UHGV virus genome: UHGV-0207123
Origin: a virus
DNA length: 6,409 bases
Reading direction: 5' to 3' (one strand)
Shown: piece after piece, positions 4 through 6,303 of the stretch
Numbering within the stretch: the stretch's first letter is position 1
Layout of the letters: every line of letters starts with the position of its first letter
The notes under the pieces: generated by a model
Seen by the model: only the letters and a program-made list of their open reading frames with translations
The model's database searches: none
What the model was told of the DNA's origin: nothing
Made by a program: the position numbers and the translations under genes

Positions 4-315
4 ATGGCAAAAAGATTATTTAAAGCACAGCTTAATCCCTGTCAGTGTGTACACAATCCTGAAATTGATCACATTTGTACAAAACCCGGCTTAGCGCTTA
101 CGCCGAGTGATATTAAAGCTCTGACCGATAAAGGCATAGCCGTTTCTTTGCCGAATGCGCAAAATTTCCTTGCACCTCAAGAAGGTGCTAGTTGGAACAT
201 TGAACCGCAATTTAGGCGAGATGCAACTATGTGTTCTGTATGGGAAACTGAAAAGCTTTCACAAAGACGTGTGATGAAGGCTCAAAAGTCTGATATTCAA
301 TTATATGGAGAATAG
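4..315 (+). CDS. Hypothetical 103-aa protein in the F/G-equivalent position between the capsid and pilot genes. It has a Cys/His cluster, C-x-C-x-H-x6-H-x-C, near the N-terminus.
   Basis: ATG at 4, stop TAG at 313-315, and the pilot ATG at 319 follows 3 nt later, so the two are tightly coupled. It is on the same strand as every other gene. If the window is a circular genome, reading the same frame back across the junction hits TAA at 6398-6400, so the ATG at 4 is a consistent start. I recognise no family from the sequence. Confidence 0.45.
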   Translation: MAKRLFKAQLNPCQCVHNPEIDHICTKPGLALTPSDIKALTDKGIAVSLPNAQNFLAPQEGASWNIEPQFRRDATMCSVWETEKLSQRRVMKAQKSDIQLYGE

Positions 316-318
316 CTT

Positions 319-1503
319 ATGGGATTTTTAAGTAAATTAAATCCGAACAGTTGGTTTAGCTCTGCCATTAGTGGCGGAGCTTCCCTTATTGGTAATATTG
401 TTGGTAATAAACAACAGAATGCCAATATTGATAAGCAAATAGCCTTTCAACGTGAAGAAAATGAGAAAGCAAGAGCGTTTAATAAGGCTATGGCAGAACA
501 AGCAAACCAATGGAGTATCGATCAATGGAATAGAGAAAATCAATACAATAGTCCTGAAGCTATGCGCCAACGTCTTCGTGACGCAGGTGTTAATGCTGAT
601 TTATTCTACGGTGGTAATGCTCAAAATACTGCTTCAGCTTCTCCTTCTGTTACTCCCGTTGCTCCTGCTACGCCTACGGACGTTTCCGCTATCGGACAAA
701 AAGCTACAGTTGGAGATATTACCAATAATGTTGTAAGTCAATCTCTTGCAGCCGCACAGATTCGGAAGCTGGAAGCTGATAAAGGTAAGACAAAGCAAGA
801 AACTGAAAATCTTAAGATTGAAGGTAAGATCCTCTCTGCTGATGCTCTTACACGTGCTGCACAAAACGAGCAGGCTTTAGAAATTGGACGCTCAACTATC
901 TATGTAAATCATTCTATTGCAAAACTGAATCAGAAAGAGGCTGAATTAGCCTCTGCCCGTATAACTGAAGCTGCTGCCAATGCTGATTTGTTGTATGAGA
1001 AAGCGAATGAAGTCAAAGCTAATATCAGAAATATCAATGCGAATACTGCAGCTACACGTTTTGGTATGATGATGCGTACAAAAGAGTTTCGCCAACGTGT
1101 GAGAGAGTTTCAGGAACAAGTACGTGTTAATGATTCTTCCATTCGTCTTAGTTATGAGCAAGCCGCTACATATTTGGCTACCCGTTCTGCTACTGTATTA
1201 AATATTAATGCGGATACCACTCTTAAGTCAGCAGGTGTAAAAACTCAATACACTTCCAGGCAAGAGATGCGTGCCCGTACTGAAATGTATGGTAAGCTTG
1301 ACCGTCTTATTAATATACAAGGTGACCAAGCTGCATTTAATCTCGACTCCGATAAAAAGTACAAAGACCTTGAAAGAGGTGTTAGCCTCGTTACAGGTAT
1401 AATAGACTCTGTTTCCGGTGTAATTGGTTCCGCCGGTTCGTTTATTTCCGGTACAGGAATTGGATTACCCAAACCTGTAGGCATTAGAGGTTTACGTAAG
1501 TAA
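319..1503 (+). CDS. Microviridae VP2/H-like DNA pilot (minor capsid) protein, 394 aa
   Basis: The N-terminus is Gly/Ser-rich and hydrophobic (SAISGGASLIGNIVG). The motif MRQRLRDAGVNADLFY at 562-609 matches the conserved R-x-R-x-x-AG-x-N-P/A-x-L-x-Y block I recall in gokushovirus/alpavirus VP2 proteins. The central part is long, Ala/Glu/Lys-rich and predicted helical, coiled-coil-like as in pilot proteins. The C-terminal tail is Gly-rich (GSAGSFISGTGIGLPKP). The gene lies directly upstream of the Rep gene. An SD-like GGAG sits at 307-310, 8 nt before the ATG. Confidence 0.8.
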   Translation: MGFLSKLNPNSWFSSAISGGASLIGNIVGNKQQNANIDKQIAFQREENEKARAFNKAMAEQANQWSIDQWNRENQYNSPEAMRQRLRDAGVNADLFYGGNAQNTASASPSVTPVAPATPTDVSAIGQKATVGDITNNVVSQSLAAAQIRKLEADKGKTKQETENLKIEGKILSADALTRAAQNEQALEIGRSTIYVNHSIAKLNQKEAELASARITEAAANADLLYEKANEVKANIRNINANTAATRFGMMMRTKEFRQRVREFQEQVRVNDSSIRLSYEQAATYLATRSATVLNINADTTLKSAGVKTQYTSRQEMRARTEMYGKLDRLINIQGDQAAFNLDSDKKYKDLERGVSLVTGIIDSVSGVIGSAGSFISGTGIGLPKPVGIRGLRK

Positions 1504-1585: not shown

Positions 1586-1663
1586 CACACCTTGAGTATC
1601 AACCGTTTACGGTCAGTGCGATTTGATGTAAAGTGCTCCTTCCGTGAGCTGAAAGTAACTCAT

Positions 1664-3052
1664 ATGAATAAAGATATATTTTGCCTTGATCCTGTTATTA
1701 TACAGACTCATACACTTGCTTACAATCTATCTATATACAAACGTTATCATACTCCTAATGGTATGGTATTTATTGATAAAGATGTCGCTGCAACATACCG
1801 TTATTATTTTCCTAAATATAAATACTCTTGTCGTCGTTTAGGTGTAACTATTGACAATGTAGATGAATTCTACATACCTACATTTGATGGTGAGATCATA
1901 TCTATGTTTATGGTTGTTCCCTGTGGTAAATGTAACCTCTGTCGTGATAAGAAAAAACGTGAGTGGTCATTCCGTGCTATTTGTGAGAATGTATATTCTA
2001 CTTCCCAGCCTCTATTCATTACGTGCACATATAATCCTAGCCATTTGCCTAAACATGGTGTATTTAAGGAAGAGTTTCAACTATTCATGAAGCGTCTCCG
2101 CATGAACTTGACTCGCAAAGGTATTGACTCTTCAAACATTCGTTATTTCGCTGTTGGTGAATATGGTCACAAATCTGGTCGTCCTCATTACCATGCTATA
2201 CTATGGTCGTTCCCTTCTGAACATTTTCCAAACATTACCGCTGTATTACATTTTATTGAACGTTGTTGGCGTGTACCCACTGGAGAATATCTTTCTGATG
2301 GCACACCTGTCACCGATTCTCTTGGTTTCTGTCTTGTAAAGCCCTGTGATAAAGGTGTTATTTCCTACGTCATGAAATACATGAGAAAAGAACCTGCTGT
2401 TCCTAAAGGCTGTAACCCTGTATTCTTTCTATCCTCTCGCAAAAATGGAGGTCTCGGTGCTCGTTATGCCCGTGATTATAAGGATTTTTATATGAAACAC
2501 CCTGAGTGCTTGGATGTATCTGTCACAGATCCATTTTCCGGTAAAACTGAAACTGCATTCCTTCCTTCGTATTTTAAACGATTGTATTATCCTAGTAATT
2601 CCGCTGTCTTAGATAAACCTACCCGTGATGCATTTAAGAAGTTTACACTCCTCATCTCTGAACGTATCCAAAATGAACACCAGTTAAATAAGTTGCTCGG
2701 AGAACCCCTTCAGCCAAAGATTTCAAAACTCGAAAAAGAAATCTATAAGAAATTTTGGTTTCTGAAAGTACAAACCTATTGTAAGCCTGAAATACTTAAT
2801 CCTGATTCCCGTTATTATAATCGTATCTACAAACGTAATCTTGCTATTGAACTAGAACTAGACTATTATATCCGTTTCTTATCATTGGTAACTTATGACG
2901 ATTCGTATATTTCCGTCCGTTCTGAACTGCTTGAAAAAAGAGAATTTTCCCTTAAGCGTAGATTTGCTTCAAAAGAACAGCTAAACTTAAATGATGTTAA
3001 TTACAATATAATCCAGAGCATAAAACTTGCATACGCAAAAGAAATACTATAA
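1664..3052 (+). CDS. Rolling-circle replication initiation protein, Microviridae VP4/gpA-like, HUH endonuclease superfamily. It is 462 aa counted from the ATG.
   Basis: RCR motif 1 FITCTY is at 2015-2032. Motif 2 (HUH) is PHYHAIL, with HYH at 2186-2194. Motif 3 is YVMKY, with two Tyr spaced Y-x-x-K-Y, at 2366-2380. An N-terminal C-x2-C-x2-C cluster (PCGKCNLCR, 1922-1942) is a zinc-finger-like element that I recall in gokushovirus-type Reps. The ORF track opens this frame at a TTG (1592). I prefer the first ATG at 1664 (MNKDIFCLD...), and the upstream 72 nt contain a small palindrome. Confidence 0.85.
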   Translation: MNKDIFCLDPVIIQTHTLAYNLSIYKRYHTPNGMVFIDKDVAATYRYYFPKYKYSCRRLGVTIDNVDEFYIPTFDGEIISMFMVVPCGKCNLCRDKKKREWSFRAICENVYSTSQPLFITCTYNPSHLPKHGVFKEEFQLFMKRLRMNLTRKGIDSSNIRYFAVGEYGHKSGRPHYHAILWSFPSEHFPNITAVLHFIERCWRVPTGEYLSDGTPVTDSLGFCLVKPCDKGVISYVMKYMRKEPAVPKGCNPVFFLSSRKNGGLGARYARDYKDFYMKHPECLDVSVTDPFSGKTETAFLPSYFKRLYYPSNSAVLDKPTRDAFKKFTLLISERIQNEHQLNKLLGEPLQPKISKLEKEIYKKFWFLKVQTYCKPEILNPDSRYYNRIYKRNLAIELELDYYIRFLSLVTYDDSYISVRSELLEKREFSLKRRFASKEQLNLNDVNYNIIQSIKLAYAKEIL

Positions 3053-3057
3053 ATTTG
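3024..3057 (+). promoter_or_regulatory. Candidate Bacteroidetes-type promoter for the small-gene cluster, with a -7 element TAAATTTG overlapping the Rep stop codon
   Basis: TAAATTTG at 3050-3057 fits the Bacteroides sigma-AB -7 consensus TAnnTTTG. A weak TTG (3027-3029) lies about 21 nt upstream as a possible -33 element. The next ATG, at 3084, is 27 nt downstream. This is pattern-match only. Confidence 0.2.
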
Positions 3058-3465: not shown

Positions 3466-3693
3466 ATGGAAAAATCAACTCTACTTTATGGATCTTTGGA
3501 AATTGTTTCACGTGAAACACTTCAACCGTTACTCACTCTTAATATTGGTGAGCTTCGAAGACCATCTCAACTTGAAAGCATGCGCTCTTCTATTGCGGAT
3601 AATAATCCGAATCTTATTGTTCTTGCTTCGTTTGAGGAAATTCTTAACCCTGCTTATTCCCCCTTAAAAGATGAAAAAGGAACAGATTTATGA
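3466..3693 (+). CDS. Hypothetical 75-aa protein (MEKSTLLYGSLEIVSRETLQ...)
   Basis: ATG at 3466 lies 4 nt after the previous stop. Stop TGA is at 3691-3693. It overlaps the next ORF by 23 nt. It is on the same strand and tightly packed with its neighbours. No family recognised. Confidence 0.45.
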   Translation: MEKSTLLYGSLEIVSRETLQPLLTLNIGELRRPSQLESMRSSIADNNPNLIVLASFEEILNPAYSPLKDEKGTDL

Positions 3694-3865
3694 AATTGTA
3701 AAAATTGTAGCTACAGCGATTATTTCTGTAGCTGCTGTACTTTTCTTGGATAGCTGTACGGCTAGTATGTCTATATTTAAGAATAATTCAGGTAGTTCAC
3801 AGAATACCGAACAGAGTTCAACATTACGTACTGATAGTACTAGTATAAATATTAAATATAAATAA
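3671..3865 (+). CDS. Small 64-aa membrane-anchored protein with a signal-anchor and possible lipoprotein signal. It is a candidate lysis or superinfection-exclusion protein.
   Basis: MKKEQIYEIVK is followed by the hydrophobic stretch IVATAIISVAAVLFL and then D-S-C. The Cys is residue 29, so a lipobox-like L-x-S-C, although Asp at -2 is atypical. After the Cys comes a 35-aa Ser/Thr/Asn-rich tail that looks disordered (SMSIFKNNSGSSQNTEQSSTLRTDSTSINIKYK). Its stop TAA at 3863-3865 abuts the VP1 start as TAATATG. Confidence 0.5.
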   Translation: MKKEQIYEIVKIVATAIISVAAVLFLDSCTASMSIFKNNSGSSQNTEQSSTLRTDSTSINIKYK

Positions 3866-3866
3866 T

Positions 3867-6116
3867 ATGGCAAATATTTGGAATGCAACCTTAGAACCCA
3901 ATAATGATGTAAAACAAAATACATTTGATTGGACACATGTTAACAATCTTACTACTCAAATAGGACGTATTACACCTATTCAGTGTGAATTAGTTCCTTC
4001 AAAAACGTCTTTTCGTGCTAAACCTATTCCGGCATTACAGCTTATGCCTATGGTATTCCCTATACAAACACGTATGCGTGCTAGTATTGCTTACTTTCGT
4101 TATCCTCTTCGTGCTCTTTGGAAAGACTATAAGGATTTTATAGGAAATTTCCGTGAAGGACTTGAAGAACCCTATCATGATTTTAATAGTCAGTCAATGC
4201 TCGAGAAGATGCTTGGAACAGGAAAGTTAATGGACTATCTTGGAGTACCTACTACTCTTATAGGTAAATATGGTAATCCTCAATCTGGTTCTCTCCCTGT
4301 TTTTCATAATGCGCAACCTTCTTCGGTTTTCTCCGGCTTAAATGTCCCGCCTTCTGTCGCTTATAATGAAATTCTTAATAATGTCTCTGATGTCAATTCT
4401 TTATATGGTACCGCTCCTGTTGGTTCTAATTCTTGGACTTATTCATTTTATGAATTTGCTGAGTTCACAGAATCAATCGATGTAGTTACTGCAAAATTCA
4501 CCCTTACATATAAGGGAGATGCTTCTCTTGATAGTTTAGCTTCCTCACCTATTTTCACTTTTGTAGCCAGTTCTGGCGTTGCTGGTGTTTTTTACGCTTC
4601 TCAACGAAATAATGTTTCTTACCTTGTTTCAGGCAAACAGATCGAATACACTTTAACGCTTCGGAAAGAGGACTTACTTAGTACTTATGATCTTGCTAAT
4701 ATCACTGGATTAGGCATACTACTCCCTAATTTTTTGAATAATGGAGGTTTCTTTAATTCTGCTAATTCTCCTCTATTTGAGCTTACGCCGATCACTATTA
4801 ACAATGTTTCTGGTGCTGGTACTGTTTCTGATTTAACATTAACTACCTCTCCGTATTATAATAGCAATTCAGCTTCTAAGGATAAACAAATTAAACTTTC
4901 TGCTTATGCCGCTCGTGCATATGAAGGTATTTATAACTCTGTTTATCGTGACAATCGTAATAACCCATATTATATTGATGGTGTTGTTCAGTATAATCAA
5001 TGGATTCCAACTTATGAAGGTGGAGCAGATTCCACTATTTATGAACTTCGTTATGCTAACTGGGAAAAAGATTTCCTTACGACTTCTGTTCAATCGCCGC
5101 AGCAAGGTAACGCACCTCTTGTAGGTATTACTACTTATGATCAGGTTTCTAAAGTTTATGACGAACAAGGCAATCCGACGTTGACTCAGCAGACAAAAGT
5201 AGCTATGGTTGATGAAGATGGAAAACGTTATTCCCTTGAATTTGAATCTGATAAGGACGAGTTAAAAGGTGTCAAATATGTAGAACTCGATAATGGTACA
5301 ACCGTTCGCTCTGCACGTTCGATTTTTGATTTAGTGACTAGTGGTATCTCTATTACTGATTTACGTAATGTAAATGCATATCAGAAGTTCCTAGAACTTA
5401 ACATGCGTAAAGGTTATTCATATAAAGAAATCATTGAAGGTCGCTTTGATGTTAAAGTGCGTTATGCCGATTTGTTATTGCCTGAGTTCTTTGGTGGTTT
5501 CTCTCGTGATATTAATATGAATGCTATTTCACAAACTGTAGATCAAACTGCTACAGGTGAAGGTTCTTATAAAGATGTTCTTGGCTCTCAAGCAGGTATA
5601 GGTTATTTTCATGGAGGTTCTGATGCTAACATTGAGTGTTTCTGTGATGAAGAGAGTATCATTATGGGTCTATTAGTAATTACTCCGTTGCCTGTTTATA
5701 CTCAATTGTTACCGAAACATTTCTTATATCGTGGACTCTTAGATCATTTCTATCCTGAGTTTAATAATATATCATTCCAGCCGATTACCTACAAGGAAGT
5801 ATGTCCAATTCAGGCATATAACGATTCGCCTGACTCATTGACGGAAACCTTTGGTTATCAAAGACCGTGGTATGAATACTGTCAGCGTTATGACCAAGCA
5901 CATGGCTTATTCCGTACTGATTTGTCTAACTTCTTAATGCACCGAGTGTTTGATAAGAAACCGGAGCTTGCTCAGAGCTTCTTAACGGTAGACCCTGATC
6001 AGGTTACAGATGTATTCAGTGTTACAGATGTTACGGATAAAGTCTACGGACAGATTTTAATTGACTGTACCGTGAAGCTTCCTGTCGCTCGTGTCGCAAT
6101 ACCGCGTCTTGACTAA
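3867..6116 (+). CDS. Microviridae major capsid protein VP1/F-like, 749 aa
   Basis: The N-terminal block NTFDWTHVNNLTTQIGRITPIQCELVPSKTSF matches the conserved microvirus MCP start pattern F-D-x-S/T-H, T, G-x-L-P, E-V/L-L/V-P-G/S. The length and the long S/T/N/G-rich low-complexity insertions in the middle third (roughly 4500-5100) are typical of the surface-loop insertions of gokushovirus/alpavirus VP1. It is by far the largest ORF and is flanked by non-coding sequence. Confidence 0.9.
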   Translation: MANIWNATLEPNNDVKQNTFDWTHVNNLTTQIGRITPIQCELVPSKTSFRAKPIPALQLMPMVFPIQTRMRASIAYFRYPLRALWKDYKDFIGNFREGLEEPYHDFNSQSMLEKMLGTGKLMDYLGVPTTLIGKYGNPQSGSLPVFHNAQPSSVFSGLNVPPSVAYNEILNNVSDVNSLYGTAPVGSNSWTYSFYEFAEFTESIDVVTAKFTLTYKGDASLDSLASSPIFTFVASSGVAGVFYASQRNNVSYLVSGKQIEYTLTLRKEDLLSTYDLANITGLGILLPNFLNNGGFFNSANSPLFELTPITINNVSGAGTVSDLTLTTSPYYNSNSASKDKQIKLSAYAARAYEGIYNSVYRDNRNNPYYIDGVVQYNQWIPTYEGGADSTIYELRYANWEKDFLTTSVQSPQQGNAPLVGITTYDQVSKVYDEQGNPTLTQQTKVAMVDEDGKRYSLEFESDKDELKGVKYVELDNGTTVRSARSIFDLVTSGISITDLRNVNAYQKFLELNMRKGYSYKEIIEGRFDVKVRYADLLLPEFFGGFSRDINMNAISQTVDQTATGEGSYKDVLGSQAGIGYFHGGSDANIECFCDEESIIMGLLVITPLPVYTQLLPKHFLYRGLLDHFYPEFNNISFQPITYKEVCPIQAYNDSPDSLTETFGYQRPWYEYCQRYDQAHGLFRTDLSNFLMHRVFDKKPELAQSFLTVDPDQVTDVFSVTDVTDKVYGQILIDCTVKLPVARVAIPRLD

Positions 6117-6134
6117 TTGGTGAAAAAGAGAATA

Positions 6135-6153
6135 TTTTTTTCTTTTTTCTTCC
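6135..6153 (+). other. Pyrimidine (T-rich) tract immediately after the capsid gene stop: TTTTTTTCTTTTTTCTTCC
   Basis: A T7 run at 6135-6141 and a T6 run at 6143-6148 lie 19 nt after the VP1 stop. The preceding A-rich GAAAAAGAGAA (6122-6132) can pair weakly with it. It may be a weak intrinsic terminator for the capsid transcript. Confidence 0.25.
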
Positions 6154-6217
6154 GACACTGCCTCATCAAGCAGAACGAGCGATATGACCAAGGGTTCTTG
6201 TAGTAAAAATTGTTAAA

Positions 6218-6243
6218 TGCGTGCGCGCGCTTGCGTGTGCGCG
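6218..6243. repeat. 26-nt all-G/C/T alternating purine-pyrimidine tract TGCGTGCGCGCGCTTGCGTGTGCGCG, which is two imperfect direct copies of a TGCGTGCGCGCG-type unit
   Basis: The pyrimidine/purine alternation is perfect for 13 nt, then a TT break, then 11 more nt. It is GC-only in an otherwise AT-rich non-coding region. Related GCGTG-type motifs occur at 6218-6225, 6231-6238 and 6372-6380. It has Z-DNA-prone composition and is a possible protein-binding or iteron element. Confidence 0.5.
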
Positions 6244-6295
6244 TATTTAATCATTTTTAGTGCAAGGTTCATTGGACATTTCGAGCGTTCTACCT

Positions 6296-6303
6296 TATCT
6301 TTG
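6296..6303 (+). promoter_or_regulatory. Candidate Bacteroidetes -7 promoter element TATCTTTG in the large non-coding region
   Basis: It matches TAnnTTTG. If the genome is circular, it could drive the 103-aa ORF/pilot operon that starts about 120 nt downstream across the junction. I could not identify a clear -33 TTTG. Confidence 0.15.

Follow-up and report, generated by a model that had tools for sequence, protein, structure and literature searches.

A conserved small predicted lipoprotein of Alpavirinae-type microviruses as a candidate factor in host lysis

Colicin lysis or bacteriocin release proteins (BRPs; PF02402 Lysis_col, with ColE1 Kil and pCloDF13 BRP) are very small prolipoproteins with a polar mature part of about 28-38 residues that starts with a lipidated cysteine; their stable signal peptide and their lipopeptide both contribute to function, and release or quasi-lysis proceeds through activation of an outer-membrane phospholipase. 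Very small size, a predicted prolipoprotein nature and a polar mature part of comparable length are also the traits of a protein of 64 amino acids (aa), MKKEQIYEIVKIVATAIISVAAVLFLDSCTASMSIFKNNSGSSQNTEQSSTLRTDSTSINIKYK, which is encoded directly upstream of the major capsid gene VP1 in the UHGV virus genome UHGV-0207123, a complete microvirus genome of 6,409 bases with VP2 and VP4 and with all genes on the plus strand (hereafter the window, meaning the whole of this stretch of DNA). BRPs appear to be the closest functional analogue of this 64-aa protein, as both would free a macromolecular product by damage to the envelope and as the functional signal peptide of the BRPs finds a parallel in the constrained signal peptide of the 64-aa protein. 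On the other hand, Lysis_col was matched neither by the window protein nor by 16 members of its family (Pfam, E up to 5), and the 64-aa protein differs by its Bacteroidota host, its encoding by a single-stranded DNA (ssDNA) phage and not by a plasmid, its longer signal peptide and its O-glycosylation sequon. Equally, we know of no BRP that lets particles of 25-30 nm pass through peptidoglycan.

The amurins, among them phiX174 E, an inhibitor of MraY that depends on SlyD, resemble the 64-aa protein as single small membrane-targeted proteins of tiny endolysin-free phage genomes, with an N-terminal hydrophobic helix and with an expression tied to late or structural genes. Differences are, however, equally apparent. 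Homology to E was found neither in Pfam nor as a PHROG of known function; E is overprinted in the scaffolding gene, whereas the 64-aa gene lies between two genes with an overlap of only 23 nucleotides (nt); and the 64-aa family possesses an invariant lipobox cysteine and a conserved periplasmic tail, while to our knowledge no amurin is a lipoprotein. T5 Llp and Cor, which block FhuA, are likewise small phage lipoproteins; both they and the 64-aa protein are predicted to face the periplasm and usually have a receptor-binding gene next to their own, as is the case for llp and cor. In contrast to Llp and Cor, the 64-aa protein, which gave no Pfam, NCBIfam or PHROG match, has a mature part of about half the size that is predicted to be disordered, and its gene is core and not accessory, with a mature peptide that differs little between capsid types. 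A likeness to holin-endolysin systems lies in the signal peptide, which is related to peptides encoded directly after an M15 peptidase, a holin-like position, but the window is without endolysin and no known holin is nearly as small as those mini-peptides. Among spanins, the o-spanins too are small lipoproteins; a spanin was rejected, as a partner inner-membrane spanin gene is neither embedded nor adjacent and a C-terminal membrane segment is missing. The 64-aa protein thus stands outside the phiX174 E, Llp/Cor and spanin families, the defining features of which it lacks. What a first-pass annotation of the window had described as a likeness to E-like single-gene lysis (Sgl) proteins or to T5 Llp holds for the small-lipoprotein architecture, as an analogy that involves no sequence relationship.

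Distribution of the lipoprotein gene and of the M15 peptidase

From gene content and distribution the favoured reading, held tentatively and with somewhat less than even confidence, is that a periplasm-facing lipopeptide acts in host lysis, where it substitutes for an endolysin module. Relatives of the window were picked by the capsid protein alone, a choice unbiased for the lipoprotein gene, and among the 60 IMG/VR contigs of at least 5.7 kb obtained in this way 54 carry the lipoprotein gene only, one carries the M15 peptidase only, five carry neither and none carries both. The lipoprotein gene is core in the Alpavirinae-type lineage sampled, with a presence in about 90% of contigs. For a minority of Alpavirinae and gokushoviruses, M15-type peptidases have been proposed to be the endolysins (Roux et al., PMC3394797), and an M15 metallopeptidase is present in phiHBP1, the only cultured Bacteroides microvirus (PMC13064476). 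No relative of the lipoprotein gene was found in phiHBP1 and, with its peptidase as a probe, about 120 lipoprotein-bearing or capsid-related loci gave no M15 gene; equally, a full-length member of the lipoprotein family is present in none of 19 M15-bearing microvirus genomes of several architectures, phiHBP1 among them, which were gathered as individual GenBank records. In Alpavirinae-type genomes, the M15 peptidase sits in the same VP4-to-VP1 interval. In the window, a Pfam search of its proteins gave no muralytic enzyme and no M15 peptidase.

The most economical description of this pattern is that of two alternative modules for one slot, an endolysin with a mini-peptide in one group of genomes and a helix extended by a lipobox and a lipopeptide in the other. 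It is this alternative-module reading that favours a role in host lysis, and, as it never occurs together with M15, the lipoprotein is the best candidate for the protein that bursts the host in Bacteroides-type microviruses. The statement of the first-pass annotation that gokusho- and alpa-type viruses have no known homologue of phiX174 E agrees with the literature (Roux 2012, PMC3394797; Krupovic & Forterre 2011, PMC3091885), with the qualification that some of these viruses carry an M15 peptidase. Its proposal of either lysis or exclusion has gained indirect support on the lysis side, through the core status, the absence of any co-occurrence with M15 and the relatedness of the signal peptide to mini-peptides, while exclusion remains a live rival.

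The 64-aa open reading frame (ORF) is a real gene under purifying selection. The pooled ratio of nonsynonymous to synonymous differences (pN/pS) is 0.16 over 614 gene pairs and the median pairwise ratio of the corresponding substitution rates (dN/dS) is 0.09; the gene of the window differs from that of locus L007 by one nonsynonymous and seven synonymous changes and from that of locus L001 by a dN of 0.13 and a dS of 1.31. Within subfamilies, pN/pS amounts to 0.11 for the signal peptide and 0.21 for the mature part, and a constraint that is tighter on the signal peptide than on the mature part is unusual for a signal peptide. A spurious or chance ORF is rejected by the conservation and by pN/pS. 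Proteins of 73-100% identity form 81 sequence clusters, encoded on contigs of about 6.4 kb, and relatives are encoded in 74 GenBank phage records and 80 IMG/VR loci; together with the 54 of the 60 capsid-selected contigs they bear out that a small ORF is kept in related genomes.

A wider profile search retrieved 3,404 clusters at 90% identity, in which every name given by a source reads 'hypothetical protein', and an exhaustive HMMER scan of 1.84 billion representatives gave 111 clusters at 50% identity. As the members at this level are 30-125 aa long, with a 1,403-aa low-complexity match that was judged spurious as the lone exception, the family consists of a free-standing small protein and not of a fragment or domain of a larger protein. 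Neither the window protein nor 16 diverse members gave a credible family in Pfam, PHROGs or NCBIfam (Pfam with E up to 1 for the former and up to 5 for the latter), and weak NCBIfam matches ('smalltalk protein', pilin-like, ThiP) were set aside as noise from hydrophobic or low-complexity sequence. Literature searches on microvirus lysis lipoproteins found no description of the 64-aa lipoprotein family, which is rated here as a new family and a new setting for a small envelope-acting phage lipoprotein.

An origin of the gene from the host is unsupported, the exhaustive search having returned only proteins of 30-125 aa and the one spurious match. Bacterial matches are three in number, two Bacteroides loci with VP1 directly downstream and one 3.5-kb contig. 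One of the Bacteroides loci, L087, is a prophage integrated into the Bacteroides sp. f07 chromosome, with the order small ORFs, lipoprotein, VP1, 105-aa ORF, VP2 and VP4 and with host genes on its flanks; the other lies in a Bacteroides metagenome-assembled genome (MAG). A signal-peptide-bearing host gene of 404 aa upstream of the L087 prophage is common to eleven longer contigs, namely L087 and ten others (e.g. L033, L034, L035, L038, L045 and L088), which suggests a shared integration site for this prophage type in Bacteroides. The 3.5-kb contig (L089; Chitinophaga silvisoli contig43, 3,476 bp, from a soil assembly) contains the lipoprotein gene together with VP4 and the beginning of VP1. 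It encodes the same lipoprotein, without any difference, as the IMG/VR microvirus L056 and represents either a contamination or an episomal microvirus.

Architecture of the prolipoprotein and of the mini-peptides

All members of the family share one plan, in which a short N-terminal stretch with positive charge is followed by a hydrophobic helix, a small residue, an invariant cysteine and a polar peptide. In the window protein (Table 1), the n-region carries K2 and K3 as positive charges among its first seven residues and the uncharged hydrophobic h-region covers residues 12-26, with a best 15-residue Kyte-Doolittle mean of 2.81, so that the N-terminal hydrophobic segment noticed in the first pass is found again. 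Cys29, invariant across the family, is predicted to be lipidated and to begin the mature peptide. The PROSITE pattern PS00013, [LIVMFWSTAG](2)-[LIVMFYSTAGCQ]-[AGS]-C with the cysteine at position 15-35, is passed by 82 of the 105 unique members, and the box F-L-D-S-C29 of the window breaks it solely at Asp27 (position -2); with D27Q, the residue of most relatives, it passes. Boxes in the family are VQSC, AQSC, IQSC, STAC, TTAC and ASAC, with LDSC in the clade of the window, and distant subfamilies have textbook boxes for signal peptidase II (SPase II) such as LLSAC, IISAC, LSSC and VASC, as in MSTKQKFLVVVLMLIAIISAC, ...FLLLSAC and MDKFVLFLSVLLLSSC. The prediction of a lipoprotein is accepted for the family, with an unusual box in the clade of the window; the lipobox-like context earlier pointed out for Cys29 consequently stands for the cysteine and for most of the family, while the window's own box fails the pattern at D27.

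The mature part comprises 35-38 residues in nearly all members, 41 in one and 36 in the window, and with nine serines, five threonines and four asparagines from Cys29 onwards it is indeed the S/T/N-rich tail that had been described. Its conserved core reads C-T-x-S-[LM]-S-[VI]-x-K-N-N-x-x-S-x-Q-x-T-E-Q ... [V/A]-D-S-T-x-I-N. Across lineages with capsid proteins that are only 35-45% identical and 584-806 aa long, there is little change in the mature peptide, which supports a conserved host target. Surface exposure of Bacteroides lipoproteins needs an acidic export signal, for example CS(D/E)2, without which the lipoprotein faces the periplasm (PMC6222051), and, as none of the 105 members has an aspartate or glutamate at positions +2 to +9, the lipopeptide is predicted to stay on the periplasmic side.

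A second conserved feature of the mature part is a predicted sequon. General O-glycosylation in Bacteroidota takes place at D-S/T-A/L/V/I/M/T in non-cytoplasmic proteins, with a usually complete occupancy of the sequon (PMC12871550). Exactly one D-[ST]-[TLIVA] occurs, always at the same position, in 81 of 81 unique sequences, and the motif is also present in nearly all full-length representatives of the exhaustive scan; D55 and S56 are among the few invariant columns, and the third residue is only T, L, I, V or A. Judged by this motif, Ser56 is probably O-glycosylated, in keeping with the export of the peptide and with a host among the Bacteroidota. An AlphaFold2 model, run with a 14-sequence alignment, predicts a helix over residues 3-38, with a predicted local distance difference test score (pLDDT) of 78-90 over residues 1-30, 45-55 in the tail and 65.6 on average; it contains no folded mature domain, the mature part being predicted as disordered.

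Single-helix membrane ORFs of 26-30 aa are found in eight of the 19 M15 genomes (Table 1), with MKEKIKKVLEVIVIALSALLGALGGSSL and MTKNKWYEVAKAIITFLGALAGALLGS as examples, and a membrane peptide of 32 aa is found in L182, a genome with neither lipoprotein nor M15. In six of the eight genomes the mini-peptide ORF follows immediately downstream of M15, its ATG overlapping the M15 stop codon in L130, L131 and L138, and in the GenBank records examined these ORFs are mostly unannotated. The mini-peptides are candidate mini-holins. Amphipathic ORFs of 23-33 aa occupy the equivalent place in the M15-bearing genomes L135, L139, L140, L143 and L144.

A profile of just the eight mini-peptides, run over the 29,903 six-frame segments of all loci, a large share of which are hydrophobic, gave 89 matches with E up to 1, of which 76 are lipoprotein ORFs, nine are training peptides, three are related ORFs in genomes with neither gene or with a truncated one, and one is unrelated. 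With hhalign, the mini-peptides align with the whole signal peptide of the family at 93.9% probability (E 1.5e-7). The lipoprotein signal peptide is related to the M15-associated mini-peptides. A six-frame profile search of the lipoprotein-bearing genomes found no separate mini-peptide ORF.

Host lysis weighed against other roles

In a role in host lysis, the prolipoprotein would be made together with the capsid protein and would be inserted into the inner membrane via its N-terminal signal peptide, whereupon Cys29 would be lipidated and SPase II would cut. Two products would arise, a free 28-residue membrane peptide and a 36-residue lipid-anchored, unstructured, Ser/Thr/Asn-rich peptide, the latter of which, being without an acidic surface-export signal, would remain on the periplasmic side and would probably be O-glycosylated at Ser56. 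The signal-peptide half might supply the inner-membrane function that the stand-alone mini-peptide would have beside the endolysin, and the conserved lipopeptide might provide for the step at the cell wall or the outer membrane by way of a conserved envelope component of the host. In the minimal relatives of the L056 type, the lipoprotein is the only predicted exported protein besides the pilot protein. The fully elaborated version of this scheme, in which one gene gives rise to two lysis effectors after SPase II cleavage, an equivalent of the mini-peptide and a glycosylated, endolysin-replacing lipopeptide for a conserved periplasmic step, is given only a very small probability. In this version, a possible target of the lipopeptide, hinted at by the invariant D-S-x sequon, would be the undecaprenyl-phosphate carrier pool of O-glycosylation, in which peptidoglycan synthesis has a share.

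A number of points weigh against host lysis by the lipopeptide. No lipoprotein is known to us among the single-gene lysis proteins of phages, nor do we know of a mechanism by which a lipopeptide of 35 aa would breach peptidoglycan. An aspartate at -2, as in the clade of the window, is an uncommon lipobox residue. As some subfamilies have short signal peptides of the ordinary kind, such as MDKFVLFLSVLLLSSC, which are unlike the mini-peptides, the idea of two products cannot hold family-wide, and whatever function is universal must reside in the mature peptide. In terms of VP1, most M15-bearing Alpavirinae-type genomes are close to one another, and the exclusivity of lipoprotein and M15 comprises perhaps 3-5 independent contrasts, being partly inherited by descent. 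The 75-aa ORF upstream of the lipoprotein gene, with homologues in 54 lipoprotein-bearing loci versus none of 22 M15-bearing loci, shows the same absence from M15 genomes as the lipoprotein gene, and the exchanged unit may thus be larger than the latter alone. Adjacency to any gene is, at most, weak evidence in a 6-kb genome. Furthermore, hydrophobic ORFs in alternative frames are located within VP4 and VP1 of the window and in L056, and they are open in 20, 16 and 12 loci, respectively (Table 1); a phiX174 E-like lysis gene overprinted within VP4 or VP1 is possible.

The best surviving alternative, rather unlikely in our estimation, is a lipoprotein for superinfection exclusion or progeny protection, which would face the periplasm and block the receptor or the entry of microvirus DNA, or would mask the receptor in debris or vesicles. 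The architecture of a small phage lipoprotein fits such a role, and so does the position of the gene, which in most genomes adjoins VP1, the receptor-binding capsid gene, and which is present in integrated Bacteroides prophages (L087 and L088), where exclusion pays. Small accessory ORFs of enterobacterial gokushoviruses confer exclusion, according to a passage in PMC9239249 that cites Kirchberger 2021. The lipoprotein gene is, however, core and not accessory, it is under strong purifying selection with no sign of diversification, and its mature peptide is near-identical across very different capsids, which presumably bind different receptors. Exclusion gives no reason why the gene does not co-occur with M15, and a stop codon 1 nt from the start of VP1 means that the gene could not be transcribed in a lysogen without VP1. 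Equally, the mature part, predicted as disordered and with a single cysteine, would be unlike the folded Llp.

Unlikely, on our assessment, is an uncleaved signal-anchor with the transmembrane helix as the effector, in the manner of a minimal holin or of an E-like inhibitor of cell-wall synthesis, whereby the cysteine and the tail would tune stability, timing or topology. One transmembrane helix is sufficient for phiX174 E and several RNA-phage lysis proteins to act, the helix is the part in common with the stand-alone peptides of 26-32 aa, it is within subfamilies more constrained than the tail (by the pN/pS values given above), and with its Asp at -2 the window protein may be a poor substrate for lipoprotein processing. 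Yet family-wide the tail and the cysteine are conserved, several subfamilies carry ordinary short lipoprotein signal peptides, the lipoprotein pattern is passed by the large majority of members as counted above, and the hydrophobic core of just 15 residues, flanked by E8 and K11, is nearer to a signal peptide than to an anchor.

Another envelope role, such as remodelling of the host surface, vesicle production, or assembly or DNA delivery at the membrane, would suit an exported, conserved protein with a sequon typical of Bacteroidota envelope proteins and has, besides the indirect nature of the link to lysis, a precedent in phiX174 K, a small non-essential membrane protein that raises burst size, but it is quite improbable, as it leaves unexplained the non-co-occurrence with M15 and the link to endolysin-adjacent peptides and leaves lysis unaccounted for in a 6.4-kb genome with no other lysis candidate.

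Genomic setting and biological meaning

The window belongs to a Bacteroidota-infecting, Alpavirinae-type microvirus; its large VP1 and its gene order match the Bacteroidales Alpavirinae-type proviruses of Krupovic and Forterre (PMC3091885), and the closest GenBank record is a rat-faeces microvirus with 78.5% nucleotide identity across 67% of the genome. The ORF list and the sequence confirm the layout that had been given for the 64-aa ORF, which shares 23 nt with the preceding 75-aa ORF and which is joined to VP1 as TAATATG, with a gap of 1 nt (Table 1). The 75-aa ORF, which has no membrane segment and is unmatched in Pfam and PHROGs, might be a functional partner of the lipoprotein or merely a linked gene.

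Table 1. Positions of the features discussed in the window and in related genomes
Feature	Sequence	Position	Strand	Basis or remark
103-aa ORF	window	4-315	+	ORF list
VP2, DNA pilot protein	window	319-1503	+	phrog_8689, E 5.7e-17
VP4, replication initiator	window	1592-3052	+	PF23343 and phrog_942
Hydrophobic alternative-frame ORF (VP4)	window	1863-2090	+	open in 20 loci
TAnnTTTG	window	3050-3057		-7-like element
Small ORFs, four	window	between 3084 and 3865	+	
75-aa ORF preceding the lipoprotein gene	window	3466-3693	+	ORF list
64-aa predicted prolipoprotein gene, stop codon counted	window	3671-3865	+	ATG start; ORF list, homologues, pN/pS
Predicted signal peptide, residues 1-28	window	3671-3754	+	n-region MKKEQIYEIVK, h-region IVATAIISVAAVLFL
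Lipobox-like L26-D27-S28-C29 (TTG GAT AGC TGT)	window	3746-3757	+	read from sequence
Predicted mature peptide, residues 29-64	window	3755-3862	+	CTASMSIFKNNSGSSQNTEQSSTLRTDSTSINIKYK
D55-S56-T57 (GAT AGT ACT), predicted O-glycosylation sequon	window	3833-3841	+	
Lipoprotein stop codon TAA	window	3863-3865	+	followed by T 3866 and the VP1 ATG at 3867
VP1, major capsid gene, 749 aa	window	3867-6116	+	Pfam Phage_F, E 5.5e-39; phrog_514, E 1.9e-82
Hydrophobic alternative-frame ORF (VP1)	window	4906-5124	+	open in 16 loci
Imperfect hairpin	window	6165-6298		non-coding, after VP1
TAnnTTTG	window	6296-6303		-7-like element
Hydrophobic alternative-frame ORF	L056	4793-5017		open in 12 loci
Mini-peptide ORF	L127	~4860-4940		
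Mini-peptide ORF	L130	6040-6126		
Mini-peptide ORF	L131	1881-1964		
Mini-peptide ORF	L132	3707-3796		
Mini-peptide ORF	L134	30-119		
Mini-peptide ORF	L138	5980-6066		
Mini-peptide ORF	L141			just after peptidase
Mini-peptide ORF	L142			just after peptidase
Mini-peptide ORF	L182	near 4105		
404-aa host gene	L087	5966-7180		upstream of prophage
Lipoprotein ORF and VP1 in one frame	L105	271-3000		IMG/VR
Lipoprotein N-terminal part in other frame	L090	~5964-6189		close capsid relative
60-aa ORF with lipobox LLISSC	L119	717-899		lipoprotein family absent

The distance between the lipoprotein gene and VP1 varies among relatives. Most of them have 0-4 nt between the end of the gene and VP1; where VP1 has 659 aa, a further small ORF separates the two, with a gap of about 243 nt, and in genomes of the L004 type, with their differing gene order, it is VP4 that follows the lipoprotein gene, after 2 nt. 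In L105, the lipoprotein ORF and VP1 form one continuous frame with no stop codon between them, either by a sequencing error or as a natural fusion. In L090, the N-terminal part of the lipoprotein is in another frame than in its sisters of the L098 type, which suggests a frameshift or an assembly error. L119, a capsid relative from which the family is absent, possesses a different 60-aa ORF about 250 nt upstream of VP1, with a canonical lipobox and two D-T-L sequons, which looks like an analogous, apparently unrelated small lipoprotein.

With respect to expression signals, no complete -33/-7 match of the Bacteroides-type promoter (TTTG...TAnnTTTG) was found in the window. The -7-like TAnnTTTG has 13 matches versus 7.4 expected and is uninformative for the lipoprotein gene; one match lies 27 nt upstream of the cluster of small ORFs of which the lipoprotein gene is the last, and another lies inside the large intergenic region. 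In the non-coding stretch after VP1, a long imperfect hairpin with arms of 66 nt that are 71% complementary has a G+C-rich core, GCGTGCGCGCGCTTGCGTGTGCGCG, which is conspicuous within an A+T-rich genome; its fold as single-stranded DNA has -31.4 kcal/mol (z = -4.7 versus shuffles), and its role might be that of a replication origin, of a terminator or of a dif-like site for recombination.

Lysis by microviruses outside the phiX174 group has been an open question since their discovery, with only the M15 peptidase of a minority proposed (PMC3394797). Microviruses of the Alpavirinae type are among the commonest phages of the human gut, with Bacteroides and Prevotella as hosts, and the lipoprotein provides a concrete lysis candidate in about 90% of the lineage sampled, for which the sister genomes with an endolysin serve as a natural control. 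Either role, lysis or exclusion, would give a description to more than 3,000 sequence clusters of 'hypothetical protein', and the mini-peptide genes beside M15 merit annotation. As an exclusion factor, the lipoprotein would shape the competition among gut phages, while, if it serves in lysis, the host component on which it acts would be a new weak spot in the envelope of Bacteroidota. Should one gene indeed provide two effectors, a lipoprotein-type system of single-gene lysis would be on record for the first time, as the principal way in which the most abundant ssDNA phages of the gut lyse their hosts.

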